32,301 nucleotides of DNA from a virus, in IMG/VR virus record IMGVR_UViG_3300006100_000043; one strand, given 5' to 3'. Positions 2,498 to 29,396 of this stretch are shown piece by piece. The translations under genes were made by a program, and so were the position numbers. Within the stretch, counting starts at the first letter, position 1. Each line of letters opens with the position of its first letter. Below the pieces are notes generated by a model that did no database searches, was not told the origin of the DNA, and worked only from the letters and a program-made list of their open reading frames with translations.

Positions 2498-3958
2498 ATG
2501 ACAACATATAATAGCAAGAGACATGGAAGAAAGAAGTTTAACGCATTGCGTTACGCTGGGATTAAGGATTTTATTGCTCGACCAGTAAAGCGTTTGTACC
2601 CAATGCGTGGATCAGGCATGGAGGGTTGGTCACAAATCGACTCCGATCCTGAAACTTTCTTGAGAGACAGAGACCAGAAGACACTGGCAGAAGTTTACAT
2701 TCACGGTTGCAATGGTGAACCAGTAACAAAAACTGACGCAAACGGCGAAGTAACCACAGTGAAGAACCCTGATGGCACCATCAAGCGCAATTGCAGAAAC
2801 CGTGCATGCGGTGGAACATTCCAAGGAGTTGCTGCAAATCCATCATCTATCAACATTCCTGCTGCACAAATCATGGGTATTCACATCCAGCCAGGTGATT
2901 CTGGAACTCTTCACTACGAAGGTGATAAATGCGAAGGCCATCACTATGGTACAAGCCCAGCAAGAAACTTGCCGACTGCTGCAGAATACGCAGATCTTCC
3001 CATTATTTACCAAGGTCACGAAGGCGAAGAACTTACAATCAACGAACTCCTGATGAACGCCAACACTGCACCGCTTGGTACAGATGAAGAAGGAAGAACG
3101 TTGTTCGCAGGAAGCATGGGTGTTGACAAGAGAACAGGCGCTGAACTGCGTGAAGAACCAATCAAGAGAATTGGTACTGCTGCAATGAACAACGCGACTG
3201 CAATGACAAGACTGGCAGAGCAGGGTGTAACAGATGTTGAGCCTTATTGGCAAGCTGCTTTGGATACTGCTCACCAAGAGTACAGAACCAAAGAAAGAGA
3301 AGTTGTCCCAGGCAGCGATTCTGAGCGTTTAGTTGGTGTAAGTGAAAGCGCTCCTGAAAGATTGCCGCTTCATACCGTTACCAACCGATCATTCCAGAAC
3401 GTTCGCAACTCACCAATGGTGCAATTGAACATTGCCGAGCTCCACAGAAGAGGGACAGAAGACCCTTGCACTCGTGATGAGAGCTGTAAGGGTTGTCACT
3501 CTATGCGTCGAGGCAGAATGCTGTGGGATAAGCTCAAGACTTCAAGTTTTGTTCAAGCATTTACGCCGCACCACGCTTGGGATGAAACTGCTGAACCAAT
3601 GAATCACGTATATGACGTGCAAGATCTTGAACAATTGGCACGAAGCAAAGATCCTGCTGTACAATCAGCGTATTTCCACGCATTCCCAGACTACTTGCCA
3701 AGCGTTGACAAGAACATGAGTGAGCTTGGAGCTGTAGGTAAGAAGGCTCCAGTAGGTTCATTCTGGAATTCATTGTCTGTTCGCAACCTTATTCAGGATG
3801 CTGTTACTGATATCCAACGACGTAAGAAGAAAAGATACGTTGGTAGAGAACCGGTTTGGCAACCGGAATACGAACCAGGTATCGATATGGATGCACTTCG
3901 TCAAAAAGCTGAAACACCTGAGAATTTCCAGAGTGTTCAAGAATTTGAAAAATATTAG
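2498..3958 (+). CDS. Hypothetical protein (486 aa)
   Basis: Long ORF starting 3 nt after the upstream stop; no recognisable catalytic motifs. Confidence 0.75.
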   Translation: MTTYNSKRHGRKKFNALRYAGIKDFIARPVKRLYPMRGSGMEGWSQIDSDPETFLRDRDQKTLAEVYIHGCNGEPVTKTDANGEVTTVKNPDGTIKRNCRNRACGGTFQGVAANPSSINIPAAQIMGIHIQPGDSGTLHYEGDKCEGHHYGTSPARNLPTAAEYADLPIIYQGHEGEELTINELLMNANTAPLGTDEEGRTLFAGSMGVDKRTGAELREEPIKRIGTAAMNNATAMTRLAEQGVTDVEPYWQAALDTAHQEYRTKEREVVPGSDSERLVGVSESAPERLPLHTVTNRSFQNVRNSPMVQLNIAELHRRGTEDPCTRDESCKGCHSMRRGRMLWDKLKTSSFVQAFTPHHAWDETAEPMNHVYDVQDLEQLARSKDPAVQSAYFHAFPDYLPSVDKNMSELGAVGKKAPVGSFWNSLSVRNLIQDAVTDIQRRKKKRYVGREPVWQPEYEPGIDMDALRQKAETPENFQSVQEFEKY

Positions 3959-3968
3959 AATAACATCC

Positions 3969-3997
3969 TTGACAGGGCTTTTTTCTCCTTATATAAA
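3969..3997 (+). promoter_or_regulatory. Consensus sigma70-type promoter TTGACA-N17-TATAAA
   Basis: ttgaca at 3969-3974, exact 17-nt spacer, tataaa at 3992-3997. Lies in an AT-rich ~230-bp gap immediately after a stop codon; downstream genes are on the same strand. Confidence 0.55.
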
Positions 3998-4012
3998 TAA
4001 AAGGACAATCTC

Positions 4013-4180
4013 GTGAATAACAAATGCAAATGTATTGGCTGTGAAACACAAAATTACTACGATAACGTACGTAAATGTGACAAAGAAAACTGCAAATGTA
4101 GCAGTTACGTCTATAAAACACCGGATTTAAGCATAAATAGCAGTTATCTTGGCAAATTTCCTGTCATAGTTAGTGAATAA
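4013..4180 (+). CDS. Small Cys-rich protein (55 aa, GTG start), putative zinc-binding
   Basis: Frame opens after TAA 3998-4000. AAGGAC sits 6 nt upstream of GTG 4013. Translation VNNKCKCIGCETQNYYDNVRKCDKENCKCSSYVYKTPDLSINSSYLGKFPVIVSE has 7 Cys in CxC/CxxC/CxC clusters. Absent from the ORF track because it is under 60 aa with a non-ATG start. Confidence 0.35.
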   Translation: MNNKCKCIGCETQNYYDNVRKCDKENCKCSSYVYKTPDLSINSSYLGKFPVIVSE

Positions 4181-4186
4181 AACGCC

Positions 4187-4609
4187 ATGACAGTCGAAAA
4201 ACATGATCAAAACATCACTCATCGCTACCAAATTCACTATCCGGAGCATCCAGAGAGGGAAAATGACCCTCATTACGTGGATTTTAACCATTTTCGGCAA
4301 AAAACCAAGGCCACTGCTCAGTGTTCTGTCGGTTTACACCGTAATGACTTCAGCGAATGTGATCTAGAACACCCATTGGAGCTTCATCACTCGCACGTAG
4401 AGTTTTCTCTGCAGAACGGAGTCGATCTTAAGTGGCTAGAAACAGATTATCCCGGCATTTCGAACCCAGAAGCCGTAGGCGCGTGGGTAGAGAGCGCAAA
4501 AAACTTGGAATGGTTGTGCCTATTCCACCATCGGGGCCATGGTGGAGTACACACGGCGGCAGCTAGCGACTATGAAGCTGAAAAATACGTACGAGGATTA
4601 ATACAATGA
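4187..4609 (+). CDS. HNH endonuclease-like protein (140 aa)
   Basis: Motif order C(46)...C(58)-DLEHPLELHHSHV ... N ... NLEWLCLFHHRGH. This matches the HNH signature [DE]xHH...N...NLxxLCxxCH. It is the first gene after the consensus promoter. Confidence 0.6.
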   Translation: MTVEKHDQNITHRYQIHYPEHPERENDPHYVDFNHFRQKTKATAQCSVGLHRNDFSECDLEHPLELHHSHVEFSLQNGVDLKWLETDYPGISNPEAVGAWVESAKNLEWLCLFHHRGHGGVHTAAASDYEAEKYVRGLIQ

Positions 4610-4938
4610 GAACGTTTAATTCAAAAGAAGCAAATACTGGTGCCATTCTTCATGATCTATATAAAGCAATTTGGCCAGAAGGTCCAAAAACTATGGGAAG
4701 CGATGTATCTAAAGCATCAGAGATCGCAACAAACCCAGACAAACGTCAGCACGCAAAAGATAGTCTTGAAAGCTTAAAAACGCTGCCTGGTTTAATTAAT
4801 GTGTATGCTAAAGACAAGGTAAATCGCATTAAGAATAGACTAAAAGGTTTAACGCCAGAAGGTCTTGATCCTGACACTGGTATGCTTCCCAACAATGGTG
4901 CTGATGATGCCGATGACGACACTACGACAGATGAGTAA
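4606..4938 (+). CDS. Hypothetical protein (110 aa), acidic C-terminus
   Basis: ATGA overlap with the HNH gene stop; C-terminal DDADDDTTTDE. Confidence 0.6.
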   Translation: MRTFNSKEANTGAILHDLYKAIWPEGPKTMGSDVSKASEIATNPDKRQHAKDSLESLKTLPGLINVYAKDKVNRIKNRLKGLTPEGLDPDTGMLPNNGADDADDDTTTDE

Positions 4939-6040
4939 AATGAAAAAAACAAGCGCAATTTCTAGAGATGAAGCCCTCAAACTTGCTCATAACATGCGCA
5001 AGAGGATTGATTTCTTTACAGAAAACCCAACAGCAATCAATGAAGCTGATTTTAAGAAACTCAGTGACACATATGATAGTCTGCGTGAACAGCATCGCAT
5101 CACTGACGATGATCTAGACGGTACTCCTGCTCCTAAGAAAGAGATAAGACCGACCAGCACTGAACCAGTTGATCTTGAACAAGCATATTATTCACAACCT
5201 GAAGTTCAAGAAGAAGAAGAAATGAACCGCGCTAATGGCCTTGACAGAAATAGCGATTTTGCTTTGCCATTTAAAATAGGTTACAACTTTGAAACTGGTC
5301 AGATCGATAGAGCCGGTCTTTTTAAAACAATTTCAGAACGCAAAGCAGCATTTGATAACAAACATTACGAAGGTGTTGACCCATCAATATTTCCTGACAT
5401 TCGAGAAGCAGAAGCAATGGGCATAAATCCCCAAACTTACATTAGAGCAAGAAGTATTGGTGCATCACACGATTATTTGACACAAGCGCATGTGATGAGT
5501 CTAAGACCACACACTATCCAGCTGGATTCCACTCCTTTGAATTCAGAAAGAGAGGGAATTGGCAAAATTCAATTCTCGGAAACCCCGGTTGGTGAAGCTG
5601 TTAAAAATTATATTGGCTATATGGAAGCAAACGGAACGCCAATGTACACAAGAAGCGAGAGCACTGACATTGAGCCAGCTTCAGGGTTTACTCCTATTCG
5701 TTTTGCTTGCATCAGACCTTTTCACGCAGGTTTGGCTGAGCAAAAGGGTGTTACCGTTGGTGAATTGACAGATGCATGGCACAATAACGGTTTTCACCCG
5801 TTGGCGCAATACAGCAGTGATCACACATTGCCAATTACAAAATATATTGTTGCACGTGACATGGGAATTGACCACCAAACCACTAGAAGACTGCTTTCAA
5901 GCGTACAACACATACCACTTGACAGTTTTAAGGGTCTGATGATCAAAGGACACTCGCCAGAAGAAATTCTGGGTGGTGCTACCAAATTTAAGCAGTTTGA
6001 GATGCCACAATCCCAAGAAAACCCGCAAATTGGTGAATAA
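4931..6040 (+). CDS. Hypothetical protein (~370 aa)
   Basis: Track ORF 4865..6040. I prefer the in-frame ATG at 4931 (MSKMKK...), which overlaps the upstream stop (ATGAGTAA); ATG 4940 is also possible. Confidence 0.65.
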   Translation: MSKMKKTSAISRDEALKLAHNMRKRIDFFTENPTAINEADFKKLSDTYDSLREQHRITDDDLDGTPAPKKEIRPTSTEPVDLEQAYYSQPEVQEEEEMNRANGLDRNSDFALPFKIGYNFETGQIDRAGLFKTISERKAAFDNKHYEGVDPSIFPDIREAEAMGINPQTYIRARSIGASHDYLTQAHVMSLRPHTIQLDSTPLNSEREGIGKIQFSETPVGEAVKNYIGYMEANGTPMYTRSESTDIEPASGFTPIRFACIRPFHAGLAEQKGVTVGELTDAWHNNGFHPLAQYSSDHTLPITKYIVARDMGIDHQTTRRLLSSVQHIPLDSFKGLMIKGHSPEEILGGATKFKQFEMPQSQENPQIGE

Positions 6041-6354
6041 TGGACTGGTTAGAACGTTACGCGATGGCAAAAGGGGACGACATCCCCACTTTGCTTGGCA
6101 AAATTAAGAATAACGCCAATACGTATTTTCCAAACGCTAACGCAGCACCACATCAATGGGTTGCTAGATATTCTATGACTGCAAAAGAACATGGTGCTGA
6201 AAACCATGAAGAACTTAGACAAGCTTGTTATAAGAATTCTGATGAAGCGCGTTGGATGGCACAAAACAAACACAAATCTTATTACTCACACACAAGAATG
6301 TGGTATGAGCTTGGAGACTTACATTCAAAAGCACAGATAGAGGCACAACAATGA
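6040..6354 (+). CDS. Hypothetical protein (104 aa)
   Basis: TAATG overlap start; ATGA overlap at its 3' end with the next gene. Confidence 0.65.
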   Translation: MDWLERYAMAKGDDIPTLLGKIKNNANTYFPNANAAPHQWVARYSMTAKEHGAENHEELRQACYKNSDEARWMAQNKHKSYYSHTRMWYELGDLHSKAQIEAQQ

Positions 6355-7079
6355 CAGACCGCATTATTGGTAAATTAGGTAAACTTGATCCTCGGAGACC
6401 CGCGGGGCTTCACGCACTCGCTTTTTATCAGCACAATCCTCTTCCTGCAGCCCCAAACAAGGTAGATGTTCCTCAAATAAACGATTGGGGAATGTTAGGA
6501 AATGACAAGTATGGGGATTGCACTTTTGCTGGTATTGTTCACGCCAGAATGGCTCACGCTGCTTTCTTGGGTATCGACGAGACCTTCCCCTCCGACACCG
6601 ATGTGGAGAACGCGTACCTTTCTTATACTGGAGGAAAAGATCAAGGAGCAGTAGAGGCCGATCTTCTCAAATACTGGCAAAACAACGAATTGTTCGGAAA
6701 GAAGCTTGCAGCTTTCGCTCCTACAGATCATGCTGACCAGGATGAGCTTCGTAGCGTTATTTCGTCGTATGGACTTGCGTACATTGGTGTACAGCTCCCC
6801 GTTACGTTCCAAGAGCAATTCATCAACAACCAACCATGGGATCTTACGGGTACTCCTGCAGATAATCAGATCGAAGGTGGCCATTGCGTCATTCTTGTTG
6901 GATATGATAAAGATCATGCACAATGTATAACATGGGGTAAAGTGCAACAGATTACGTGGAGATGGCTGCAAAGCTACATGGAAGAGAGCTGGGCTCTCAT
7001 CACTCCAGAGATTGCCGGAAAGGGTCTCTATGGCGATCTTCGCTTGGACACCCTAATTGCTGACCTTAAGGAACTATAA
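6351..7079 (+). CDS. Papain-like / transglutaminase-like Cys-His peptidase domain protein (242 aa)
   Basis: Candidate nucleophile in YGDCTFAG (G-x-C-x-x-F-A motif). Candidate catalytic His in GGHCVILVGYDKD, resembling the papain DHAVAAVGY region. Cys precedes His (non-permuted). Confidence 0.6.
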   Translation: MTDRIIGKLGKLDPRRPAGLHALAFYQHNPLPAAPNKVDVPQINDWGMLGNDKYGDCTFAGIVHARMAHAAFLGIDETFPSDTDVENAYLSYTGGKDQGAVEADLLKYWQNNELFGKKLAAFAPTDHADQDELRSVISSYGLAYIGVQLPVTFQEQFINNQPWDLTGTPADNQIEGGHCVILVGYDKDHAQCITWGKVQQITWRWLQSYMEESWALITPEIAGKGLYGDLRLDTLIADLKEL

Positions 7080-8093: not shown

Positions 8094-8987
8094 ATGAAGT
8101 ACGCAGAACTTGGACAGGGTAACCATTCAGACGATGATAGTCTAGAAGCCATTGAGAATCACGAAGAAGGTTTCGGTATCCCTGGTCAATCTGCTGTGGG
8201 CCACATTGGTTTTGTAAGAAGAGCTGACGTTGGCAACCAGGATGAAAACTCAACGGGTATAACAGCGCCAACAGGTCATCACACTATCAAATTAACAGAA
8301 GAGCCAGGAATTGTATCAAACGAAGGACTTAGCAGTGTTAGCCCAGGTTCTTTGTCACCACTTATCAATGGAGCACTAGGAAGCAATATGAATACAAGAA
8401 TTGCATACGTAATGGAGAATGGTGAGCCGTTCTGCAATCACTGTGAACGTAGTTTCGTTCCAGCTAATTTGACACGCATCGCATGCACTCATTGTGGTTG
8501 CGGTGCACCACAGGACGATCATGGTTTGGGTGAAAACAACTTCAGTCATGTCGAGGGTGATGTTAAAGAACACGTGCCAGCAGCTGATAAACCTTTCATC
8601 AAAGAAGAAACTAAGCTAAGCTTCGTTGACATGGCATTGCAGACATTCCAAAAGCAATCTAACGACAGTGAACTATACTACCGTGGTTACAACGATGCAC
8701 ACGCTGGCAAGCCACTCGATGAAGACCTCGCATTGTTGAGCGATGACTACTACAATGGTTATGATCAACACAAGTTCTACAACAAGACACCACAGCAAAG
8801 CACTGGTCAAAAGTTGTACGACCTTAAGCCAAACAGCAATGACATTCCACGTGGTGGGAACATGACACCTGGTGAAGCAGACCGCGGTCCACTTGAATTG
8901 ACTGATGGATTTAACCACGCTACTGCTTCGGTTAGACTTGCTTCTATCTTCCCCGTTGATGTAATTGAGAAGTTTTTTGAGGTATAA
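8094..8987 (+). CDS. Hypothetical protein (297 aa) with CxxC...CxxC zinc ribbon
   Basis: Real start taken as ATG 8094 (MKYAELGQG...), 1 nt after the upstream stop. Track ORF 7542..8987 extends upstream through the previous gene in another frame. Motif CNHCERSF...CTHCGCGAP. Confidence 0.65.
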   Translation: MKYAELGQGNHSDDDSLEAIENHEEGFGIPGQSAVGHIGFVRRADVGNQDENSTGITAPTGHHTIKLTEEPGIVSNEGLSSVSPGSLSPLINGALGSNMNTRIAYVMENGEPFCNHCERSFVPANLTRIACTHCGCGAPQDDHGLGENNFSHVEGDVKEHVPAADKPFIKEETKLSFVDMALQTFQKQSNDSELYYRGYNDAHAGKPLDEDLALLSDDYYNGYDQHKFYNKTPQQSTGQKLYDLKPNSNDIPRGGNMTPGEADRGPLELTDGFNHATASVRLASIFPVDVIEKFFEV

Positions 8988-8988
8988 T

Positions 8989-9729
8989 ATGGAAATCTGT
9001 AATGTTTGTGATAGCGGTTTACTCGTTGTAAAGATGAGCTCTGCAGGCAAGGAAGCATTTTGCTCATCATGCCGACGTATTGTAGAGAGCGCTACACTTG
9101 GTTTTAAGTTTGCTCTTACCGAAGGTGACGATGGTATTGTAGAGTGCAAGGGTCCAGACAACCGTAGAGGCTGGAAGGGTCCCGGTAAGAAGGCACGTTG
9201 CTTTACTTACGAAGAAGGAAATCAGGAAGAAGAGAAGAAAGCCCTGCAAAAAGCCAAGGACTCTGCTTATGCTCACCAACATGCTCGTGGTGCTTCTAAA
9301 ATCGTAAACGCTACTGCTTACTTCACAGGTGGGCCTGAAAGCATGTCTGCACCTGCTGCTGCTTCTTCTCTTGTGGGAAAATCAAATGGATCTCCTATTC
9401 GTCCTGGTGGCAACCCAACCAACCCAATGGCTCCTGGCGCACAACCAAATCCTGTATCACCTATTATGCACCCTGGCAAGAGTCCAATTGAACCTGGACC
9501 AATTCGTCCTGGTGGCGCTGGCTTGCACGGTGAAGTTCCTGCTGCTCCTGGTGGAATGCAAATGGGTGACCTTAATGGTGCTAACCCTCTTAACAGCGGT
9601 ACAACTGCTAGCAGAAAGTTGATTATGCTAGCCAATGAATTAATTGCTCATGAAGAAATGGGCGACCCCTTCTGCACACAGCACAATTCTAGAGCTAGTC
9701 AATGTAATCATCTACATGAGGCGCACTAG
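8989..9729 (+). CDS. Hypothetical protein (246 aa): N-terminal zinc ribbon, Pro/Gly-rich middle
   Basis: ATG 8989 (MEICNVCDSG...CSSCRR) 1 nt after the upstream TAA. Repeated PIRPGG segments. Confidence 0.65.
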   Translation: MEICNVCDSGLLVVKMSSAGKEAFCSSCRRIVESATLGFKFALTEGDDGIVECKGPDNRRGWKGPGKKARCFTYEEGNQEEEKKALQKAKDSAYAHQHARGASKIVNATAYFTGGPESMSAPAAASSLVGKSNGSPIRPGGNPTNPMAPGAQPNPVSPIMHPGKSPIEPGPIRPGGAGLHGEVPAAPGGMQMGDLNGANPLNSGTTASRKLIMLANELIAHEEMGDPFCTQHNSRASQCNHLHEAH

Positions 9730-9756: not shown

Positions 9757-10467
9757 ATGAACTACGACGAAATTGAAATCCAAGCTAAGACTGCTGCCGC
9801 AGATAACGGCTGGTTCAACGGCTCTTCAGAAAGTATCTTTGCTAGATTAGACAGACTGCAAGAGATCCTTGACTCAACACGCACAGCAGCCAGCCACCCC
9901 AACACCAACGAGAGAGACCTCGAGCGTTTTGCCAATATCCTCACAGAGCTTGGCGCCGAGAAGGAAGCCCTAGAGAAGCTCGCATCAGAGTATGTTGACT
10001 TTGACACTGAGCAGTACCTTGACAGTCTCCCTGGCGGAACAATTGCTAAGCAATACCGTGTTAGCAGCGCAGGTGTACTTGACCTCGGTGAAGACGATGG
10101 TAGCCTTTTGTACCGCACAGCTTCTTCGATCAACAGAGAATATGAAGATGCAGACTGGATTAACTTCGTTACTGCTGGTGCTGAAGTCTGGGTAGAAGAC
10201 CAGAACCTTCGTTTGCTTGACAACCAGCTTAACACTCGTGAGGCAGCTGTTTACTACGTTGAACAACGCACAATGCCAATCTTGGATGTAACCAAGCGTG
10301 CAGCCATTATTGACAACTTTGTTGACAATGTAGAAATTTGCCGTAGAGCAAAGAAGGAAGGCAGCAAGTTCCGTGGAATTAAGTCCGCTAACGCTCAAAA
10401 ACTGTCTGCCAACTATGTTAACGAAGCCTTGAACGACTCTTTCGGAGATGGCCTTAACTGGTTGTAA
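9757..10467 (+). CDS. Hypothetical protein (236 aa)
   Basis: ATG preceded by AGGAAAACAGAAAG. The conserved 10-mer AGTAATTAGG sits 20 nt upstream. Confidence 0.7.
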   Translation: MNYDEIEIQAKTAAADNGWFNGSSESIFARLDRLQEILDSTRTAASHPNTNERDLERFANILTELGAEKEALEKLASEYVDFDTEQYLDSLPGGTIAKQYRVSSAGVLDLGEDDGSLLYRTASSINREYEDADWINFVTAGAEVWVEDQNLRLLDNQLNTREAAVYYVEQRTMPILDVTKRAAIIDNFVDNVEICRRAKKEGSKFRGIKSANAQKLSANYVNEALNDSFGDGLNWL

Positions 10468-10468
10468 T

Positions 10469-10978
10469 ATGACAGAGACTTGGCACGGTTTTAGAGTTGT
10501 TGGTGCCGTAGAAGATGACACAACAACAAAACCAGTAGAACAACCACCGCTTATTAAGCAATTGCAAGAATTGCTAGCTGATGCTGCGTTGTTTTATCAT
10601 TCAGTTCACGAATTCCACTGGAATGTTTCCGGATTGGATTTCTACGAATACCACAAACTGTTTGATGAAATTGTAAGCGATGTATACGATAGCATCGATC
10701 CAATTGCAGAGAATATCCGCAAACTTGGTGGTCGTGTTAAGTATAAAATGAGTGAGCTTGTCGATATCGCTAATTTGCAAGAACCTGCAGAAGGTGGCAC
10801 TGAAGCGAAAACCTTGACATCTGAACTTATTAGGCTAAACTCTAAGCTCATTAATACTTTGATGAATACTTTCAATTTGGCGAACAAACTCAACCAACAG
10901 GGTATTGCCAACTTCATTGCCGAACGAATTGACCAGCACCAGAAATGGGAGTGGTTCCTAAGAGCCTCTGTTGAATGA
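10469..10978 (+). CDS. dps: Dps / ferritin-like DNA-protection protein (about 169 aa)
   Basis: LQELLADAALFYHSVHEFHWNVSGLDFYEYHKLFDEIVSDVYDSIDPIAENIRKLGG aligns residue-for-residue with the Dps ferroxidase-centre region (HWN...HxxFDE...AERIRxLGG). The C-terminal WEWFLRASVE resembles Dps FLWFIESNIE. In-frame ATG 10448 is an alternative start. Confidence 0.8.
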   Translation: MTETWHGFRVVGAVEDDTTTKPVEQPPLIKQLQELLADAALFYHSVHEFHWNVSGLDFYEYHKLFDEIVSDVYDSIDPIAENIRKLGGRVKYKMSELVDIANLQEPAEGGTEAKTLTSELIRLNSKLINTLMNTFNLANKLNQQGIANFIAERIDQHQKWEWFLRASVE

Positions 10979-11208
10979 TGGAAAGCGTTTCCCAGAATAT
11001 TGGTAATGTAGTGGCTATCCTTACAGCCATTATGAGTGAGCAAGAAGACCTAGCATATGAAATGGTCTTAGATTCTGATCCTATCGAATTGTTCAGTTCG
11101 CTCACTGGTATCCTGCTTAGCTCTCTTAACCATTTAACAAATCTTACTGGCATTACTACCGATGAATATATCAAAGATCTTGGTATGCTCGCTTTTAAGT
11201 CATTATGA
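10975..11208 (+). CDS. Hypothetical small protein (77 aa)
   Basis: ATGA overlap at both ends. Confidence 0.5.
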   Translation: MMESVSQNIGNVVAILTAIMSEQEDLAYEMVLDSDPIELFSSLTGILLSSLNHLTNLTGITTDEYIKDLGMLAFKSL

Positions 11209-11504
11209 GCGAACTCAACGAATTGCCAGAGGGTATTTATATTAATAAAGAACCCAGCGAATTCTATTATGAAATAGAATTTGAATTTATAAATGAAAAC
11301 AAATGCAATAAATGCAATATTGTTTATGAAAGTTTCCTCATGTCAAATGCCAGCAGACATGAGGGAAATATTGTGATCCGTCCTTCTAACAAAAGTGTAT
11401 GGAGAAATACTTTATCAAAAAACCGTGATAAGGCATTAAAAAACTTGCAAGAAACTTTAACCTTAAAGTTTGACAACCATAAGCAAAGGTGTAATAATGA
11501 TTAG
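11205..11504 (+). CDS. Hypothetical small protein (99 aa) in a strongly AT-rich segment
   Basis: ATGA-coupled start. Local GC is visibly lower (~30%) than the flanks. Contains CNKCN. Confidence 0.5.
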   Translation: MSELNELPEGIYINKEPSEFYYEIEFEFINENKCNKCNIVYESFLMSNASRHEGNIVIRPSNKSVWRNTLSKNRDKALKNLQETLTLKFDNHKQRCNND

Positions 11505-11661
11505 GTACAGTACACAACCGACCAAGGGTCCAAATGTCTTGTCAGACAGCCCGACAGCTCCCAAAGTAACAACAAAAGATGTTCGCGGTCTGCTTGGCAT
11601 TAATGAAGATGAGAAATCTCAGACTTTGTTAGACCTTGATGCGGAAGACAACAACGAATAG
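11497..11661 (+). CDS. Hypothetical small protein (54 aa)
   Basis: Track ORF 11470..11661 begins with TTG. The first ATG, at 11497, overlaps the upstream stop. Confidence 0.35.
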   Translation: MIRYSTQPTKGPNVLSDSPTAPKVTTKDVRGLLGINEDEKSQTLLDLDAEDNNE

Positions 11662-12526
11662 GACAATAGTGACGAAACAACTGGCTGAAAAAGATCCAGC
11701 AACACACATTGTAATTCCAGATACCCAGGCCAAGGACGGTGTTCCAACAGATCACCTCACATGGATCGGTAACTATATCGTGGAAGAATTTCACAACCAA
11801 GATGTGAAGATCATCCACCTTGGTGACCACGCTGATATGCCAGCCCTTTCAATGTACGATAAGGGCAAGAAGAGCATGGAGGGTCGTCGTGTTAAAGCAG
11901 ACATTGAAGCTGCGAATGAACACTGGCGCATCCTCAATCAACCGTTATACGATTATAACGACAACAAGCGCAAGAGCAAACACGCTATCTGGAATCCAGA
12001 GCGTCATATCTTGCTCGGCAACCACGAAGATCGTATCAACAGAGCAACAGAAATGGATGCTCAGATCGATGGGTTGTTCAGCACCGATGATCTTGATTAC
12101 GCAAGAAGTGGCTGGAGAGTAAGCCCGTTTAAGAAAATTCTGTGGTTGGATGGAGTGGCTTACAGCCACTTTTTTTATAACCACATGACGGGTGTACCCT
12201 ATGGTGGCAATATCGATACGCGTCTTAAGACTATCGGCCACTCATTCACTATGGGTCATCAGCAGACTTTCCTTTATGGTATGCGATACGTCAACGACAG
12301 CAATGAGCCTTACTCACAGCATGGGCTTGTAGCTGGTGCTTGCTACTTGCATGACGAAGACTACAAGGGTCCGCAGGGTAATGCTCATTTCCGTGGAATC
12401 GTTGTAAAACATGGTGTTCAAAATGGCAGTTATGACATCCAGCAAATTTCTCTTGATTCTTTGTGCCGTAGATACGAAGGTATGGGCGTAGAACGGTTTA
12501 AAAAGCTCAAGTATCCGCATATGTAG
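11636..12526 (+). CDS. Calcineurin-like metallophosphoesterase (about 290 aa)
   Basis: Motifs in order: IVIPDTQ...DG (I), HLGDHADMP (II, GDxxD), LGNHEDR (III, GNHE), TMGHQQ (IV, GH), GACYLHDE (V). Alternative start GTG 11669 with AGGACA upstream would remove the 26-nt overlap with the previous ORF. Confidence 0.75.
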   Translation: MMRKTTTNRTIVTKQLAEKDPATHIVIPDTQAKDGVPTDHLTWIGNYIVEEFHNQDVKIIHLGDHADMPALSMYDKGKKSMEGRRVKADIEAANEHWRILNQPLYDYNDNKRKSKHAIWNPERHILLGNHEDRINRATEMDAQIDGLFSTDDLDYARSGWRVSPFKKILWLDGVAYSHFFYNHMTGVPYGGNIDTRLKTIGHSFTMGHQQTFLYGMRYVNDSNEPYSQHGLVAGACYLHDEDYKGPQGNAHFRGIVVKHGVQNGSYDIQQISLDSLCRRYEGMGVERFKKLKYPHM

Positions 12527-12529
12527 TAT

Positions 12530-13732
12530 ATGGATAAAAATAACGAACGCCAGAGGAAGAACTTTCGCTGTGTCTTTAATCCTTACGTGACTAAAGATAA
12601 CCGCGATGGCGTTATTCGTTCCATCATTTCTCAGTTTGAAGGTTATGAAGCTGAGCCTGAAGTCACACTACATGACGATGGTTTTATCATCACGCTTACC
12701 ACTGGTCCTGAATTATCTCCAACATTAATCAGAGATAAAATTCTGTGGAATCAATTCGTTGACAGCGTAACAGCTTCCGATGCTATCCGCAAGATCCAGA
12801 TCATACGTATCCCTAAGAATTCTGGTTTGATGGATTTTGGTGGTCGTGTGGAAGGACAAGGCAGTATTGGTGGTTTTGGTCCTGAAGTCGATCCTATTGT
12901 TGGCAATACTGGTGTGGATGAGAAACTCAACACGCCATTGAACTACAAGCCTAAGTATCAGATCGATGGAGATCCTAATGATACATTGGGACACCATGCC
13001 AGTGTTAGAAAATACGCTGACCCAACAGATCTTACTTCTCAAGACCAATCTTTTGTACACGGTCTTACTCCAGCTGATTTGACAAGTGATGCCAACAGGG
13101 TTGAAACTGGCCCTCAGGATCCATTGGAAACTGGTAATCACAAATCGTTGCCAAAGGTATTCGCTAGCTTTAAGCGTATTGCAATCGATACAGACGCTGG
13201 AAGTGCTTTTACTTTAAACAAGCCCAATGGGTTTCAAAGCGTTAATGATCCACCCAACCAAGGACCATTGCACCAACGTGCCACTCCAGCAACTGGTATT
13301 GGTGGTGGAGCCCCTATTAGCGGTGCTAGCTGGTATGTAACACAGCCTGGCAATGAGCAAGGAACCGAGCTTGGTGCTGAACGTAACAAGGATTACGATT
13401 TGAGCAGCTCATCAGCACCCCTTGGTGGGATTACTGCTTCGTTGTATGAAGGTCCTGCAGCTGAACAATACGAGAAGTCTATCAAAGACGAATACGGCGC
13501 AGAAACAGCTGAAGACCAAAATAAAGATCAGATCAAAAAGAACATCGTTTACGCATCTTCTGATGGAGACAGTGATACCGATGACGAACAAGGTATTAAA
13601 GCAGAATACGGTTCAACGCTAGATATGCTAGGTGTTGGAGACCACCCAATTGGTGGTGCCGCATATGGTTCTTTCTTTGGACTTAATGAAACATACGATT
13701 ATCAAGGCGATATAGATGAGTACAACCTATAA
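12530..13732 (+). CDS. Hypothetical protein (400 aa), acidic Ser/Asp-rich C-terminus
   Basis: Long ORF; no recognised motifs. Confidence 0.7.
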   Translation: MDKNNERQRKNFRCVFNPYVTKDNRDGVIRSIISQFEGYEAEPEVTLHDDGFIITLTTGPELSPTLIRDKILWNQFVDSVTASDAIRKIQIIRIPKNSGLMDFGGRVEGQGSIGGFGPEVDPIVGNTGVDEKLNTPLNYKPKYQIDGDPNDTLGHHASVRKYADPTDLTSQDQSFVHGLTPADLTSDANRVETGPQDPLETGNHKSLPKVFASFKRIAIDTDAGSAFTLNKPNGFQSVNDPPNQGPLHQRATPATGIGGGAPISGASWYVTQPGNEQGTELGAERNKDYDLSSSSAPLGGITASLYEGPAAEQYEKSIKDEYGAETAEDQNKDQIKKNIVYASSDGDSDTDDEQGIKAEYGSTLDMLGVGDHPIGGAAYGSFFGLNETYDYQGDIDEYNL

Positions 13733-14264
13733 GGTTTACGAAGCAGGTAAAGATCCGTCAAAGTACGTACCAGGAGATTTTATTCTGGTGTCGACCAAGG
13801 GAGTCCTTGCTAAGTTTATCCGTTTTGGTCAATTCATCCGTTATCACGGTAAAATGAAGCCCTTTGCTCACTGGAACCATGCTGCTATGGTTATCAGTGA
13901 GAATGGCGACATCGTTGAAGCTGTTGGTCGCGGTGTTGTAGTTAGCAACATTGGTGAGTACAAGAACGTAGAATATTACTACGTTTCTACTAAGCTTAAC
14001 AAGCAAAGCCGTGACCAAGCGGTAGCTGCTTGTAAGAGTTTCATTAAGGATAAGTATGGTTGGCTAACCATCTTGAGTATTGCTACGGAATTGGCAACTG
14101 GCATCAAGATGCAGTTCACCAATAGCAACACAATGATCTGTAGCGCCGTAGTAGCACAATCCCTATGGGCAGGTGGAGTCGTATTCGACCGCAACCCATA
14201 TCAAATGATGCCTGCTGATTTGGCAGCATCTTTCAACATTCTGACGGAATTGCCAAATACTTGA
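13716..14264 (+). CDS. Permuted papain-fold amidase of the YiiX/YaeF (peptidase C92) type; candidate endolysin/cell-wall hydrolase
   Basis: GDFILVST...HWNHAAMVI...VEAVGRGV...MICSAVVAQSLW...MMPADLAAS follows the YiiX order (GDIIF...SH.G..V..EAVG...YCSEVVW...SPQAVF). His precedes Cys (circular permutation). Confidence 0.7.
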   Translation: MSTTYKVYEAGKDPSKYVPGDFILVSTKGVLAKFIRFGQFIRYHGKMKPFAHWNHAAMVISENGDIVEAVGRGVVVSNIGEYKNVEYYYVSTKLNKQSRDQAVAACKSFIKDKYGWLTILSIATELATGIKMQFTNSNTMICSAVVAQSLWAGGVVFDRNPYQMMPADLAASFNILTELPNT

Positions 14265-14295
14265 TTTTTTGCATTTTATGCAATAAATTGAAAAT

Positions 14296-14463
14296 ATGCA
14301 AAAAGCTACAATTACCATCAGTTATGATGCCCGTGACCACCAGAGCGAAGAGCTCGCTAGTCAAGAGATCAGCGAAACTATCGCTGGCCTTCTCAACAGC
14401 TTGCGTACTCAAGTAAATGGCGTCCAGGTAACCGTGAAGTTCCAAAATAACAAGGAGAAATAA
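14296..14463 (+). CDS. Small hypothetical protein (55 aa) between amidase and holin-like genes
   Basis: ATG 14296. Translation MQKATITISYDARDHQSEELASQEISETIAGLLNSLRTQVNGVQVTVKFQNNKEK. The stop overlaps the AAGGAG ribosome-binding site of the next gene. Not in the track (under 60 aa). Confidence 0.4.
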   Translation: MQKATITISYDARDHQSEELASQEISETIAGLLNSLRTQVNGVQVTVKFQNNKEK

Positions 14464-14465
14464 TA

Positions 14466-14819: not shown

Positions 14820-14826
14820 TTCTTAA

Positions 14827-14899
14827 TCCCTGGTAGCTCAATTGGCAGAGCAACGCACTGTTAATGCGTGGGTTCCTGGTTCGAGTCCAGGCTGGGGAG
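14827..14899 (+). tRNA. tRNA-Asn (anticodon GTT)
   Basis: Manual cloverleaf. Acceptor tccctgg/ctgggga, D-arm gctc-aattggca-gagc, anticodon arm acgca-ctGTTaa-tgcgt, T-arm cctgg-ttcgagt-ccagg, discriminator G. No encoded CCA. Confidence 0.8.
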
Positions 14900-14904
14900 C
14901 TTTA

Positions 14905-14978
14905 GGTCTTGTAGCTCAGTTGGTTAGAGCACTTCCCTGTCACGGAAGGGGTCGTGGGTTCAAGTCCCATCAAGATCG
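14905..14978 (+). tRNA. tRNA-Asp (anticodon GTC), CCA encoded at 14979-14981
   Basis: Acceptor ggtcttg/caagatc, anticodon arm cttcc-ctGTCac-ggaag, T-loop ttcaagt, discriminator G followed by cca. Confidence 0.8.
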
Positions 14979-14982
14979 CCAT

Positions 14983-15053
14983 TGAGGGATGGTGTAAAGG
15001 CAGCACAAAAGACTTTGAATCTTTTAGTCTAGGTTCGATCCCTAGTCCCTCAG
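14983..15053 (+). tRNA. tRNA-Gln (anticodon TTG), CCA encoded at 15054-15056
   Basis: Acceptor tgaggga/tccctca, anticodon arm aaaga-ctTTGaa-tcttt, T-arm ctagg-ttcgatc-cctag, discriminator G then cca. 71 nt. Confidence 0.75.
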
Positions 15054-15057
15054 CCAT

Positions 15058-15130
15058 GGGACTGTAGCTCAGTGGTAAGAGCGGAAAGCTTATATCTTTC
15101 TGGCCGTAGGTTCAATTCCTACCAGTCCTA
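15058..15130 (+). tRNA. tRNA-Ile (anticodon TAT, reads AUA), CCA encoded at 15131-15133
   Basis: Acceptor gggactg/cagtcct (G1-U72), D-arm gctc-agtggtaa-gagc, anticodon arm gaaag-ctTATat-ctttc, T-arm gtagg-ttcaatt-cctac, discriminator A then cca. Confidence 0.7.
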
Positions 15131-15221
15131 CCATTTAAAACATGCTCTGAGTTATAGCAGTAATTAGGCAATATATGCCTATATTCAGCGTTCCTATTGG
15201 GACAATATAAGGAGTAACACG

Positions 15222-17402: not shown

Positions 17403-20400
17403 ATGTACAATTCAAAGAACAACCAAAAAGTTGCAGCAGAGCAAGATACATATGCATTTGCCAAATCATTAGACGATGCTGCTCATGGTGGTGATCTCGG
17501 TAAAAGAATTGGTGTTACCAATATTTCCACGCAAGCTGGCTTGTGGGACCGTTCCAAGAAGCTGTGGAGCGAAGGTGTCTACCCGAAAGCATCGGAACTA
17601 ACACCAGGTACATTTGCCACACCATTCGCTGGCCTTCAAGAACAATTGTCTAGTATGCCTGCGGTTACAAAAGGTGGCAACCAAGGTGAACGTGTAATTG
17701 GTGGTTTTAAAAACGCTGATACTGGCCACTCATATGCAATGAGAATGTTCTACCAACCAGATGGTGACAACCACCGTCTTAAGGTATCTGTGCATTTGCC
17801 AGAAAGCGGAGTAAACGCTCACGGCAATCATATCTATGACGTTGAATCAGGTAAGTGGCACCTTCCCGGCGAATCTCACGATAGCCCAGAAGCAATTTCT
17901 TCTTACAACCCCATGGAAGTAATGCAAAGCGCACCAGAAGACTTTGCTAATGCAACTCAATGGACTAAATTCAACACGCCATCTCACTCAGATGGTTTTT
18001 GCAAATCTTGCAAGCGTTTCCCAAGATTTCTTAGCCGCATGCTTAAGATTATGCGACCAGAGAATTGTACAGCTTGTGGAATGCGTGGTGGTGCTCCTGA
18101 GTACCCATGGGAACCTGGTACGTTCGTTGATTTAAACTCAGAAAATGGAACTGGTGTTCAGACCAGTGCTTTTTCTCAATACATGGGGCCAATCTGTCGT
18201 AACAAAAAATGCATTAGTTACAATAAGTCTATCGCTTCCGAGCCAGCGTTTGTAACTCCTGATTACCAGGTAGTTTACCCCGGTGCCGTCGGTGCACAAG
18301 GCAAGAAAATTTACCAGTTAACACCAGCCAAAGTGTCTGAGTTCAGAGATCTTAGAGCAGAGAGAGAATCTAAGAGAACAGAAATTTCTCGGCGGATTAA
18401 CGATGCCAGACTCCTTGGTGACTTGGGCGAAAATGGTGATTACCACGCAGCAAGAGATGAACAGTCTTCAAATGAATACATGATTTCATCATTAGCAGAA
18501 ATGCTTGCAAACCATGAAATCGTTGATAGCTACAAGCCTGATCACAAGCACCTAGAAGAACCAGGTCAGACGACTGCACCATCAAGAATGGTATATGATA
18601 ATCCCATTATCAAGGAAGCCGTAGAGCGTGGCGGTGCAAAAGCAATTAGCTTGCCAGCTGCAAGTTTAGAATGCGATCATGAAGATTGCCCTGACACAGT
18701 TCTTGATCAAACAACTGGAAGAATTAATACAAGTAGACCAATTAGAACTCATGTCGATAAGTTCCCAAAGCTCGGTATTTTGCCATGCCAACACTGTCGT
18801 CGCGGCGCTGCAAGTGGTGTCAAAACTGTAACCACCGAAGATGGATACACAAGATGTGATCCTTCAGAGTACGGTGCCAACACATGCGCACCATTGCCGC
18901 AAAGAATTGCTGATGATCGTGCAGATGATTACTTTAGCTGGTTTGATCCAGACCCCGTAGACAAATACCCTGTAATTAAAAAAGATGCTGGAACGGGTAT
19001 GGGAGTTCTTTTTCAACGTACTGAAGACGAGCAGGATCCAAACAAGCCCAATGGTACATACCCTGGTACTCAAAGAATTTTCATGAAAAACCCATCCAGT
19101 GGTAGAGATCCAGTCGGCAACGGCTATGAGAGCCCCAGAGATTACTTCAAGTTTGGTAAGAAGTCCCCATGGACACGTTTCGGCATGTTCGGACGCAAAA
19201 TCATGGATCGACTGCCCTTGGTTGATCATGAAAGTGACGAAGCAAAGGAATACGCTACAAAGTACAATTTGGCTGATCAGGTAAGAACAGAGATGGGTAG
19301 TGCCAATCTTAGTGAAGACGATATCAACCGTAATGCCAACATTGAAGCAGCCAGCAAGATCAATGGAAAAATTTTAAGTGAACATCGCTCCAAGGCGCAG
19401 GGTTCATTGGCTGAAGAACGCATTACACCTGAAGACTTCGAAGAACTCTCATCAACACCGGTAATTGGTAGCTTAGATAGTATATCAGACACTGATCCTG
19501 TGCTTACGACTTCTATTAATCCTTTTAGATTGCCAGAAGATATTGATGAACGCATAAAGCCACAAACAGCAGTCGATGAACTGGGTCGCGAAGTTGCTCC
19601 TGGTGAGGATCTGAGCCAGGAAGACTATGACCTTGCACGTGGTTACGAGGCACGAAGCATCCCTACGGTATCAAGTATTGTTTCGGATCTTGCTCAGGGA
19701 ACAGGTACATCGCACGATCCAATTCGCTTTAGAGAAAAGCGCGGTTCTCGAAGAATTGTTGCTAATGCATCTGGTTTTGTTTATCCAAAACAAGTTCCTA
19801 TGAGTCTCGATAGTGGTGTTGATTGGGATGATCTTTACGGTGCTCGTCCTGATCTTGTCATACCTGATACACCAGATCAGGAAGAAGTTTTCCAAACTCA
19901 GAAAGCAGTAACACCTGGAGAATCATTGGCAATTGCTCAGAATGAAGTCACAGACTGTCCTGAATGCAAAACCATGTCGATCCTTAACAATGTGCGAGGA
20001 ATGGTGCCACAATCAGCGGTATACGTATCACCGCACTGCCCAACGTCACAATGCCCAGGTGGAGAAGAATGCCACAGTGATATGACCAACAGAAGCCCTC
20101 ACTGTCACGGCTGCAAGGATCCAAAAATTTGTGTTGGCAGAAAGAGAAAAGTTTGGCGCAATGTAGATGCAGTCTGCTCAACCTGTGATAATAACGGGTT
20201 TGTAAGCCCTTCAAAGGTTGCTGACAGGGTTATTCCTGCAATTGGAGAAGGAGCACAGCGTAGAGATATTGGTCACGAAGATATCGTTGGAAATCCAACC
20301 AATGCAATGGATGTGTTTAATGATAGAATCGGTGAATCAGCTCTCGGTGATCTCGAAAGCCATGGTATTGAAACCACTGGTCTTAGCGTTGATGCGATCA

Positions 20401-29184: not shown

Positions 29185-29193
29185 GGAGTTGAC

Positions 29194-29385
29194 ATGGAAA
29201 GACAACAGAATATAAGATTGGCACGTACACGTCACGTTGGTGCTAACTTCGATTTTAATGGCAACCCTATCATTCAGAATGAATCTGGTGGTACCGTTCG
29301 TCTGAGTGGTCCCATTAGCACTTACCCATGTGGTCACCAATCAATTCCAGGTATTAGTGCCTGCAGTTGCGAAGAATACGCATAG
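29194..29385 (+). CDS. Small hypothetical protein (63 aa)
   Basis: Strong RBS TAAGGAGTTGAC-ATG. Confidence 0.6.
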   Translation: MERQQNIRLARTRHVGANFDFNGNPIIQNESGGTVRLSGPISTYPCGHQSIPGISACSCEEYA

Positions 29386-29396
29386 GATAAACTTTA

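Follow-up and report, generated by a model that had tools for sequence, protein, structure and literature searches.

A strongly conserved family of small HNH-fold proteins in an uncultured tailed phage, distantly related to the T5 nicking endonuclease

The window analyzed here, the whole 32,301-nucleotide stretch of IMG/VR virus record IMGVR_UViG_3300006100_000043, encodes a 140-aa protein of a single-domain His-Me finger (HNH) family that is absent from curated libraries and has more than 1,000 members. We consider it moderately probable that positions 3959–4609, which hold this gene, a small Cys-rich ORF and their upstream signals, are a native two-gene unit in a rightward operon, and that the enzyme is a trans-acting HNH nickase or nuclease, not a homing endonuclease. 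A self-contained mobile homing cassette, as proposed in the preliminary description, is contradicted by a promoter owned by the small ORF, an ATGA overlap with the next gene, native GC content and saturated synonymous divergence (pS). As the evidence stands, the protein adds one to the small phage proteins with an HNH fold.

The DNA comes from an uncultured tailed phage, probably of Actinomycetota; its phage identity is indicated by a portal protein gene at 29397–31754 (E 9e-167), about 25 kb from the HNH-like gene. No terminase was identified in the window, and neither a terminase nor a portal lies within 25 kb of the HNH-like gene. Searches of GenBank phages by blastn with 4.7 kb and by tblastn with the protein gave no match and hence no cultured relative. 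The features discussed below are, in order:

2498–3958, + strand: upstream flanking gene, 486 aa, without a family match
3969–3997, + strand: putative sigma-70-type promoter, TTGACA at 3969–3974, 17-nt spacer, -10-like TATAAA at 3992–3997, read from the letters
4001–4005, + strand: Shine-Dalgarno sequence AAGGA, 7 nt 5' of the GTG (4013) of the small ORF
4013–4180, + strand: small ORF, 55 aa, 6 Cys (CxCxxC...CxxxxCxC), GTG start, a truncated member of a conserved family
4187–4609, + strand: HNH-fold (His-Me finger) protein, 140 aa, from a very strongly conserved family not described before
4379–4396, + strand: ELHHSH, residues 65–70, with H68 as the predicted general base
4502–4531, + strand: NLEWLCLFHH, residues 106–115, with predicted metal-binding Asn/His and zinc ligands Cys111/His114
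4606–4609, + strand: ATGA overlap of the HNH-like stop with the start of the next gene, read from the letters
4606–4938, + strand: next gene, 110 aa, starting within the ATGA overlap
6351–7079, + strand: p242 neighbor, phrog_19005 (PHROG E 1e-31), with papain-like Cys/His motifs

Both motifs had been pointed out before in the ORF at 4187–4609, and they were found there. Residue conservation was assessed in an alignment of 60 diverse family members spanning 25–91% identity. C111 and H115 were invariant, and E65, H67, H68, E72, N106, H114 and H122 were each present in at least 90% of the members. The residues expected of a His-Me enzyme, the candidate catalytic His (H68) and the candidate Asn/His ligands (N106, H115), are thus retained. 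In the clade of the window protein, C46...H51...C58 stands where most family members have CxxC and, because of this replacement, our choice of zinc ligands is a guess. The protein contains 15 His and 3 Cys in its 140 residues. Invariant His is found within the N-terminal 40 residues, outside the HNH core, and this His-rich segment might be a sign of a different activity. Structure prediction by AF2 from the 60-sequence diverse alignment reached a pLDDT of 96.3, compared with 48 when 33 close homologs were the input. The 140-aa protein has the beta-beta-alpha-metal (HNH) fold.

Curated libraries did not recognize the protein. It had no match at E ≤ 1 in Pfam, including the HNH models PF01844, PF13391, PF13392 and PF14279 and the DNA-targeting families, and none in NCBIfam, PHROGs or PADLOC. 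Among the 60 members, weak Pfam matches were found to HNH_2 (9 members, best 0.002, sub-threshold) and HNH (3 members, best 0.032), and a single member weakly matched RecA_dep_nuc (E 0.11). A phmmer search of the protein against the PDB returned nothing, and Foldseek gave no significant match in the PDB or BFVD; the RecA-dependent HNH protein Ref of phage P1 had a BFVD E-value of 0.2, which is not significant. The HNH assignment of the preliminary description is therefore one that no Pfam model at E ≤ 1 backs, but that the fold and the profile evidence do.

The profile evidence came from hmmsearch of the family profile against the PDB, which found 9QGV/9QGX, annotated as "nicking endonuclease" (E 9e-6). 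This protein is T5.153 / ORF142 of phage T5, hereafter T5 Nick, which, in line with its database name, makes the site-specific nicks in T5 DNA. No papers citing 9QGV were found. An hhalign comparison of the family with T5 Nick gave 95.3% and E 2.4e-8 over 90 columns. ELHHSH aligned with LELHHYH of T5 Nick, the second His of which is Q or A in both PDB entries, and the NLEWLCLFHH region aligned with LCQHHH. Both are small single-domain HNH proteins (140 aa here, 145 aa in T5) and have in common a core of a Cys knuckle, LELHHxH, an unusually long insert (~40 residues) and LCxxHH. T5 Nick is likewise a conserved phage gene, present in 899 phage records, and no homing element. However, the identity is only about 27% and limited to those 90 columns. 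The His-rich N-terminal 40 residues have no equivalent in T5 Nick, which has a true CxxC in place of C46...H51...C58. Its gene lies between terminase and portal, whereas the window gene stands behind a host-type promoter with the portal 25 kb away. Judged by sequence, the T5 nicking endonuclease is the closest characterized relative, yet a distant one (27% identity), belonging to a sister family and not to the same one.

Small HNH nickases of phages and prophages are about 100-aa, Zn-stabilized, DNA-nicking proteins with a beta-beta-alpha-metal fold. Gme HNH (4H9D), GVE2 HNHE (5H0O) and phage Gamma HNH share 13–14% identity with the window protein. Enzymes of this type match Pfam HNH models and are usually encoded beside cos and terminase; the window family, in contrast, matches no model and is not terminase-linked here. 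Many of them bear an extra zinc-ribbon module (PMC3592412). This has a parallel in the Cys-rich small ORF, which in two genomes (L050 and L053) continues in frame into the HNH-like gene.

The small ORF and its signals were examined in relatives. Its Shine-Dalgarno sequence, GTG start and length of 55 aa agree with the preliminary description, but the peptide contains six cysteines (positions 5, 7, 10, 22, 27 and 29) and not seven. It had no match in Pfam, PHROGs, NCBIfam or PADLOC. Its relatives elsewhere are 126–143 aa long, have an acidic C-terminal domain, and conserve the N-terminal [NK]-C-x-C-x-x-C motif; a 52-aa short form with 36% identity occurs in L024. By comparison with these relatives, the small ORF is a real, conserved gene that has been shortened in this genome.

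TTGACA-N17-TATAAA is present at 3969–3997, where it had been described as a perfect sigma70 promoter. "Perfect" is too strong, as the -10 hexamer matches the consensus at 5/6 positions and lacks the final T; a consensus promoter scan with a T6 rule left this pair unlisted. In this window, 0.61 matches to the promoter pattern with at most one mismatch are expected by chance, and 17 of 100 shuffles contained at least two. By itself, the pattern is within chance for this window. In an alignment of 12 diverged genomes, however, the -35 TTGACA was invariant at the same place, and the TATA core and the AAGGA Shine-Dalgarno sequence were kept, while the surrounding intergenic DNA was not conserved. 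Because of this phylogenetic footprint, and not because of the pattern match, we judged that 3969–3997 is likely a real, conserved promoter. In L134, the promoter and the small ORF are kept and the HNH-like gene is absent from the slot, and we therefore assign the promoter to the small ORF and not to the HNH-like gene.

The HNH-like gene follows the small ORF after 6 nt. No cassette boundary marks its far end, where its stop codon and the start codon of the following gene share ATGA. The HNH-like gene is embedded in the operon and is not a cassette end. The same operon contains a ferritin-like gene, and a metallophosphoesterase (phrog_221) is encoded nearby.

The HNH-like gene is the best conserved of its neighborhood. 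All 80 copies in viral contigs were full length, with protein identities of 65–83%, compared with 22–35% for homologs of the upstream gene, which occupy a corresponding position in the relatives. Against L016, the HNH-like protein had 81% identity and thus falls into one well-conserved block with p110, p104 and p242 (83–85%), whereas the upstream gene product had 23%. Identity was still 72–74% to copies within Streptomyces DNA of 69–72% GC. Conservation extended over all 140 aa; across 33 sequences, 60 columns did not vary. Over 91 pairs, median pS was 0.83 and median pN 0.157, with synonymous sites saturated. Because of the saturated pS and the low pN, the copies are best seen as old and constrained, neither recent invaders nor decaying, and the gene is old and under strong purifying selection. 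As a separate observation, conservation this strong exceeds what a simple nuclease role explains.

About 12 representatives carry inteins, all exactly before C111 (between L110 and C111), so that these homologs read ...WL|C...HN|C-x-x-HH. The insertions thus sit at the active-site Cys. Inteins invade conserved functional genes, and their presence here counts against a homing element. A 2025 survey of actinophage inteins listed no such extein. In L247 and L232, long ORFs resembling the HNH family were considered as phage inteins and rejected, being stop-free read-through of high-GC DNA.

The gene is also accessory and position-variable. At loci fetched through p242, it was present in 46 of 65, and p242 shared its strand and lay within 6–10 kb of it, before it in some loci and after it in others, in 45 of 80 and 46 of 65 loci. 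These fractions, together with 1 of 16 cellular copies, led us to reject p242 as an obligatory partner, and no neighbor was universal across the loci. In cellular genomes, the gene was found in 14 of about 185,000 species, sporadically in Actinomycetota; in Mycobacterium interjectum it adjoins p242. Contexts elsewhere were tail-fiber, holin or lysozyme neighborhoods, prophage-like islands and lone cellular copies, and a VIT1/ferritin-like gene lies near a Streptomyces copy. Comparison with related phages, proposed earlier as a check for a mobile cassette, revealed five syntenic relatives without the gene at this slot (L134, L136, L148, L149 and L152). The HNH-less slots hold other genes, in L148 an FkbM methyltransferase gene, and at least one of the five has a copy 28 kb from the slot. 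Absence at the slot in five relatives and sporadic presence in cells imply some horizontal movement.

These patterns bear on how the gene came to be where it is and what it does. A free-standing homing endonuclease would be encoded by a selfish HNH gene that brings its promoter along and whose product cuts HNH-less alleles so that the gene copies itself between the flanks. With such enzymes (I-HmuI, T4/T5 heg, mob) the family has in common the HNH fold, the residence in phage genomes and some presence/absence variation. The slots without the gene, the sporadic cellular copies and the shifts of position between phage clades (either side of p242, near tail/lysis genes, 28 kb off) would fit, and in the closest relatives its synonymous divergence is 0.75 vs 0.48 for p242, a sign that the two genes may have had different histories. 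Homing enzymes typically contain additional DNA-binding modules, show low conservation and a sporadic distribution, and are often of deviant composition. The window gene, in contrast, encodes a single, ultra-conserved domain, has native composition (GC 0.468 vs 0.462 for the window), is coupled to its neighbors and has no promoter to itself, since the promoter of the small ORF stays where the HNH-like gene is gone. Pfam detected no additional DNA-binding or target-recognition domain, and the sole candidate accessory module is the separate small ORF. The ATGA overlap in place of cassette ends, the saturated pS with low pN, which speaks against recent spread as well as decay, the whole-length conservation, the methyltransferase gene instead of an empty target site in L148, the invasion of the gene itself by inteins, and the non-homing nature of T5 Nick all argue in the same direction, and we regard homing as highly improbable. 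A packaging-associated HNH protein of the HK97 gp74 / GVE2 HNHE type, which helps terminase to cut concatemers at genome ends, would match the small single-domain architecture and the place of T5 Nick between terminase and portal. In the window, no terminase adjoins the gene, 25 kb separate it from the downstream portal, and it lies behind a host-type promoter and not in a late module; tail-fiber, holin or lysozyme contexts and lone cellular copies occur elsewhere, and one would not expect syntenic relatives to lack an essential packaging factor at the slot. On gene context, this role was rejected as improbable.

The remaining alternatives concern the activity itself. An accessory nuclease for conflict or host takeover, expressed early from a host-type promoter, could nick or degrade host or competitor DNA, or serve in prophage exclusion and defense. 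The conserved and apparently strong sigma-70-type promoter, the accessory and variable placement, with moron-type positions beside genes for tail fibers and lysis as well as sites within prophage-like islands, and the nearby metallophosphoesterase (phrog_221) are in line with this. In T5, a metallophosphatase and HNH enzymes are candidate degraders of host DNA, in a preprint that does not treat T5.153 (bioRxiv 10.64898/2026.04.02.716235). Against this role, no PADLOC model matched, and no immunity or partner gene was consistently linked across loci. Conflict genes usually evolve fast, whereas the HNH-like gene is among the slowest-evolving of its genomes, and we consider the role rather unlikely. 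Alternatively, the protein may not be a nuclease at all: rich in His and Cys, it could bind metal on a reused HNH scaffold and act, for instance, in metal-dependent regulation or in a structural role on a conserved host machine. The abundance of His and Cys, the presence of invariant His outside the HNH core, the extreme whole-length conservation, as is usual for proteins docking onto conserved partners, the ferritin-like genes in the operon and near the Streptomyces copy, and the lack of a curated HNH model match would agree with such a function. However, every residue expected for His-Me catalysis is kept across 25–91% identity, its homolog T5 Nick bears the name of a nickase, and the inteins sit at the catalytic-site Cys; a non-nuclease function therefore has a low probability.

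In the native two-gene unit, the conserved sigma-70-type promoter would be read by host RNA polymerase and yield the small Cys-rich protein. The 140-aa ORF has no evident Shine-Dalgarno sequence, and its translation is probably coupled to that of the small ORF. A Cys/His zinc knuckle, with C46, C58 or H51, C111 and H114 as candidate ligands, may steady the beta-beta-alpha core. As suggested by the invariant residues and homology, H68 would activate water, and N106 and H115 would hold the catalytic Mg2+/Mn2+ ion. The enzyme would then nick or cut DNA in trans for the phage, and not the site where its gene lies. Its probable partner is the small Cys-rich protein, the N-terminal part of which is joined to the enzyme in two genomes, in parallel with the zinc-ribbon modules of other phage HNH enzymes.

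A further-reaching proposal is that the family, as a sister of T5 Nick, occurs widely among uncultured actinophages of fresh water and in some prophages of actinobacteria and, with the small protein, makes site-specific nicks in phage or host DNA. We hold this to be unlikely as a whole. If true, T5-style programmed nicking would extend well beyond Demerecviridae, and a target or partner that is itself conserved would account for the extreme constraint on the family. Should the enzyme nick at specific sites together with a separate zinc-binding protein, it would be of interest for programmed nicking in phage genome biology and as a compact tool for nicking DNA. The case also corrects a plausible but wrong annotation, in which an HNH motif plus a promoter was equated with a homing endonuclease; homing and native genes were told apart here by promoter ownership, synonymous saturation and neighbor-anchored presence/absence. 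It further places outside curated libraries a family of more than 1,000 members for which there are a confidently predicted structure, a distant relative with a name (T5 Nick) and a natural intein point at the active site.

Some details of the surrounding DNA complete the picture. An RNA element in the AT-rich stretch was considered and ruled out, as Rfam gave no match (best E 0.77) and the folding z-score was -0.04. The designation of the region as an AT-rich island holds for the promoter and the mini-ORF (GC 0.315 and 0.327; 0.315 at 3901–4100) but not for the 140-aa ORF, and a stretch at about 11.05–11.5 kb is more AT-rich than either of the former. Nor is the gap at 3959 the only sizeable one in the plus-strand gene train, since gaps of 201 nt (14265–14465), 402 nt (14820–15221) and 212 nt (29185–29396) occur elsewhere on this strand; once the mini-ORF is counted as a gene, the gap at 3959 measures 54 nt.

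The unit around the 140-aa ORF (the HNH-like gene) consists of the following features:
3969-3997, + strand: predicted promoter read from the sequence, with -35 TTGACA (3969-3974), a 17-nt spacer and -10 TATAAA (3992-3997)
4001-4005, + strand: SD motif AAGGA, 7 nt ahead of the GTG at 4013
4013-4180, + strand: small ORF of 55 aa with a GTG start, read from the sequence
4187-4609, + strand: 140-aa ORF with ELHHSH and NLEWLCLFHHRGHGGVH motifs, read from the sequence

The 140-aa protein was unmatched in the curated libraries Pfam (even at E ≤ 1), PHROGs, NCBIfam and PADLOC. A large protein collection held 1091 homologues, the best 120 of which were 71-91% identical over the full length, and IMG/VR gave 246 matches; at E ≤ 0.001, the family comprised 140 cluster representatives. 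Sixty of the 140 columns were invariant among 33 close homologues. The signature P-x-H-x-P-R-x-x-D-P-H-Y ... C-x-x-C ... E-L-H-H-x-x-x-E ... N-L-x-x-L-C-x-x-H-H-R-G-x-x-G-x-H was derived from 60 members (25-91% identity), with C111 and H115 invariant and H67, H68, E72, N106, H114 and H122 present in at least 90%.

The structure predicted from a diverse alignment reached a pLDDT of 96.3 and a pTM of 0.86 (a shallow alignment gave an unusable model, pLDDT 48), and a Foldseek search with it returned no significant match. The family profile matched the PDB entries 9QGV/9QGX, 'nicking endonuclease', with an E value of 9e-6. These represent T5.153 of phage T5 (T5 Nick), which is kept in 899 phage records and annotated as 'nicking endonuclease' in a T5-like phage. 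Direct comparison by hhalign gave 95.3% probability over 90 columns. Wild-type T5.153 reads LELHHYH; its second His is replaced by Q or A in the two PDB entries, as would suit a catalytic residue. All 140 residues of the window protein are strongly constrained, among them a His-rich N-terminal stretch of 40 that T5 Nick lacks. The HNH signature noted in the preliminary description is thus borne out by motifs and fold, but not by any curated HNH model. Distantly related to T5 Nick as a sister and outside every curated family, the protein represents an undescribed family within the HNH superfamily, encoded in a conserved bicistronic unit.

About 12 representatives of 370-600 aa carried an intein of ~230-460 aa between L110 and C111 (WL/C ... 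HN/C-x-x-HH), exactly ahead of the invariant Cys. These inteins gave Pfam matches to Hint and Intein_splicing, with no recognisable homing-endonuclease domain. The portion of a 2025 actinophage intein survey consulted here makes no mention of an HNH-like extein.

Intein-bearing homologues:
P0121, P0124, P0130, P0136, P0160, P0175, P0209, P0214, P0247, P0253: insertion equivalent to window 4514-4519

The promoter, previously called perfect, does read TTGACA-N17-TATAAA, but its -10 matches five of six consensus positions. The final T, usually conserved in this hexamer, is missing, and therefore a consensus scan passed over the promoter. The window has one exact TTGACA-N17-TATAWW; with up to one mismatch, 0.61 chance matches are expected, so the pattern by itself is no proof. 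Twelve diverged genomes shared the order of upstream stop, TTGACA, 17-18-nt spacer, TATA-rich -10, AAGGA and an ORF starting x-x-[KN]-C-x-C-x-x-C, with TTGACA invariant and the surrounding intergenic DNA not conserved. The proposed AT-rich island shrank to the promoter (GC 0.315) and the small ORF (0.327), the 140-aa ORF being at 0.468 against 0.462 for the window. Nor was this the only sizeable gap of the + strand gene train, which has larger ones of 201, 402 and 212 nt. An Rfam search of the AT-rich stretch found no family, and RNA folding no unusual structure. The most AT-rich part of the window lies elsewhere, at 11050-11500 (GC 0.30, with small ORFs inside); there, TTGACA-N17-AATAAT with an upstream TG (11470-11498) is closer to consensus than the promoter at 3969-3997.

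The small ORF, which has six Cys codons and not the seven first counted, is a real gene. Its relatives are mostly 126-143 aa long, with a conserved acidic C-terminal domain; a short form of 52-55 aa is common to the window and one relative (L024). Two loci, L050 (5890-6420) and L053, encode its Cys-rich N-terminus and the HNH-like protein as one reading frame of 176 aa, a natural gene fusion joining the products of both genes. Among relatives, the two genes are spaced by -4 to +6 nt (6 nt in the window, where no SD is evident for the HNH-like ATG), which points to translational coupling. On the other side, the HNH-like stop codon and the start codon of p110, the gene that follows, overlap as ATGA (4606-4609).

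Presence and absence were assessed in loci fetched via the neighbour gene p242, not via the HNH-like gene itself, which lay within 10 kb of p242 in 46 of 65 loci. Three absences were loci with truncated flanks. The HNH-like gene directly followed the small ORF in most relatives, but not in all: five clearly syntenic ones (L134, L136, L148, L149, L152; 8-10 kb on both sides) had none there. In L148, an FkbM-type methyltransferase gene (Methyltransf_21, E 4e-16, 8855-9499) fills the place and overlaps the small-ORF stop; in L134, two tiny ORFs follow the small ORF; L152, a 124.7-kb contig, has a divergent copy ~28 kb off in a different neighbourhood. A second phage clade has the gene on the downstream side of p242, and it lies in further clades and cellular copies after tail-fibre-like, holin-like or lysozyme genes. 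Only 14 of ~185,000 species genomes carry it. Its synonymous divergence between closest relatives exceeds that of p242; each of the two genes therefore has a history of its own. Given these absences, positions, rarity and history, the gene is accessory, not a fixed core gene, and moves on a long time scale through the usual mosaicism of phages.

Among the cellular copies are those of the Streptomyces cattleya megaplasmid (L011/L012, 8896-10492) and a Streptomyces sp. (L120). One stands alone among metabolic genes, behind a GH25 lysozyme; the other belongs to a prophage-like series of unknown genes and has a CBM/Laminin_G protein and a VIT1/ferritin-like gene in its vicinity. In the p242 protein (6351-7079, phrog_19005), Cys57 and His178 are invariant and belong to papain-like motifs (N-D-x-Y-G-D-C-T, G-G-H-C). 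Linkage of its gene to the HNH-like gene is loose in phages; in Mycobacterium interjectum (L108), p242 directly precedes the HNH-like gene.

The preliminary description took 3959-4609 for a free-standing homing-endonuclease insertion. The fold and promoter of that reading stand, but the stretch is not a self-contained mobile cassette: L134 keeps promoter, SD and small ORF without the HNH-like gene at this place. Nor does a recent invader fit. Identity to the window protein is 65-83% across 80 viral loci (for the upstream 486-aa gene, 22-35%), and still 72-74% in the Streptomyces copies, which lie in DNA of 69-72% GC. In 91 pairwise genome comparisons, synonymous differences had a median of 0.83 (saturated) and non-synonymous ones of 0.157. 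Against the relative L016, the gene is 81% identical, alongside downstream p110, p104 and p242 at 83-85%. These values reflect old divergence under strong purifying selection, not recent spread or decay, and we regard a homing endonuclease as very improbable. A 366-aa gene (4940-6040) is absent from L016, where its neighbours are those 83-85% identical genes, and is therefore the clearer insertion or deletion in this neighbourhood.

The 140-aa enzyme most likely nicks DNA, as judged from its nearest relatives T5 Nick, Gme HNH and the phage Gamma-type enzymes (PMC3592412). Host polymerase would initiate at the conserved promoter, and the enzyme would be made along with the small Cys-rich protein. 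The enzyme would be a zinc-stabilised beta-beta-alpha-metal nuclease, with H68 as general base, N106 and H115 as catalytic-metal ligands, and C46, C58 or H51, C111 and H114 as zinc ligands. The small protein may add a zinc-ribbon-like DNA-binding or regulatory module, in trans in the window and in cis in L050/L053. A terminase-associated HNH protein is unlikely, the portal gene being 25 kb away, and we would give a non-catalytic metal-binding protein equally little weight. A host-takeover or conflict nuclease is somewhat less improbable, if still doubtful; it concerns the role and could share the chemistry of a nicking enzyme. Phages often encode small HNH proteins, so interest in this one is modest; what raises it somewhat is how extremely it is conserved, its link to T5 Nick, the inteins at the active site and the Cys-rich partner, fused or separate.

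The window had no match among GenBank phages at the DNA or protein level, and most of its ORFs were unmatched in family searches. A portal protein (785-aa ORF, 29397-31754; phrog_2833, E 9e-167) indicates a tailed phage. Many assemblies of freshwater metagenomes contain the region in identical form. The host is likely an actinobacterium, since nearly every homologue of the 140-aa protein in cellular genomes comes from Actinomycetota. A 1189-aa ORF (17403-20972) had a single family match: residues 315-373 form a GreA/GreB N-terminal domain, the coiled coil of transcript-cleavage factors (E 6e-14), which is unusual in the make-up of a phage protein. The same rightward operon encodes a ferritin-like protein (10448-10978, E 2e-18), a metallophosphoesterase (11636-12526, phrog_221, E 1e-40) and a C92/YiiX-like amidase-type protein (13716-14264). 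At the left edge, positions 1-400 have a GC of 0.54-0.58, well over the 0.46 average of the window, beside the leftward block of small genes seen in the loci L002-L005.
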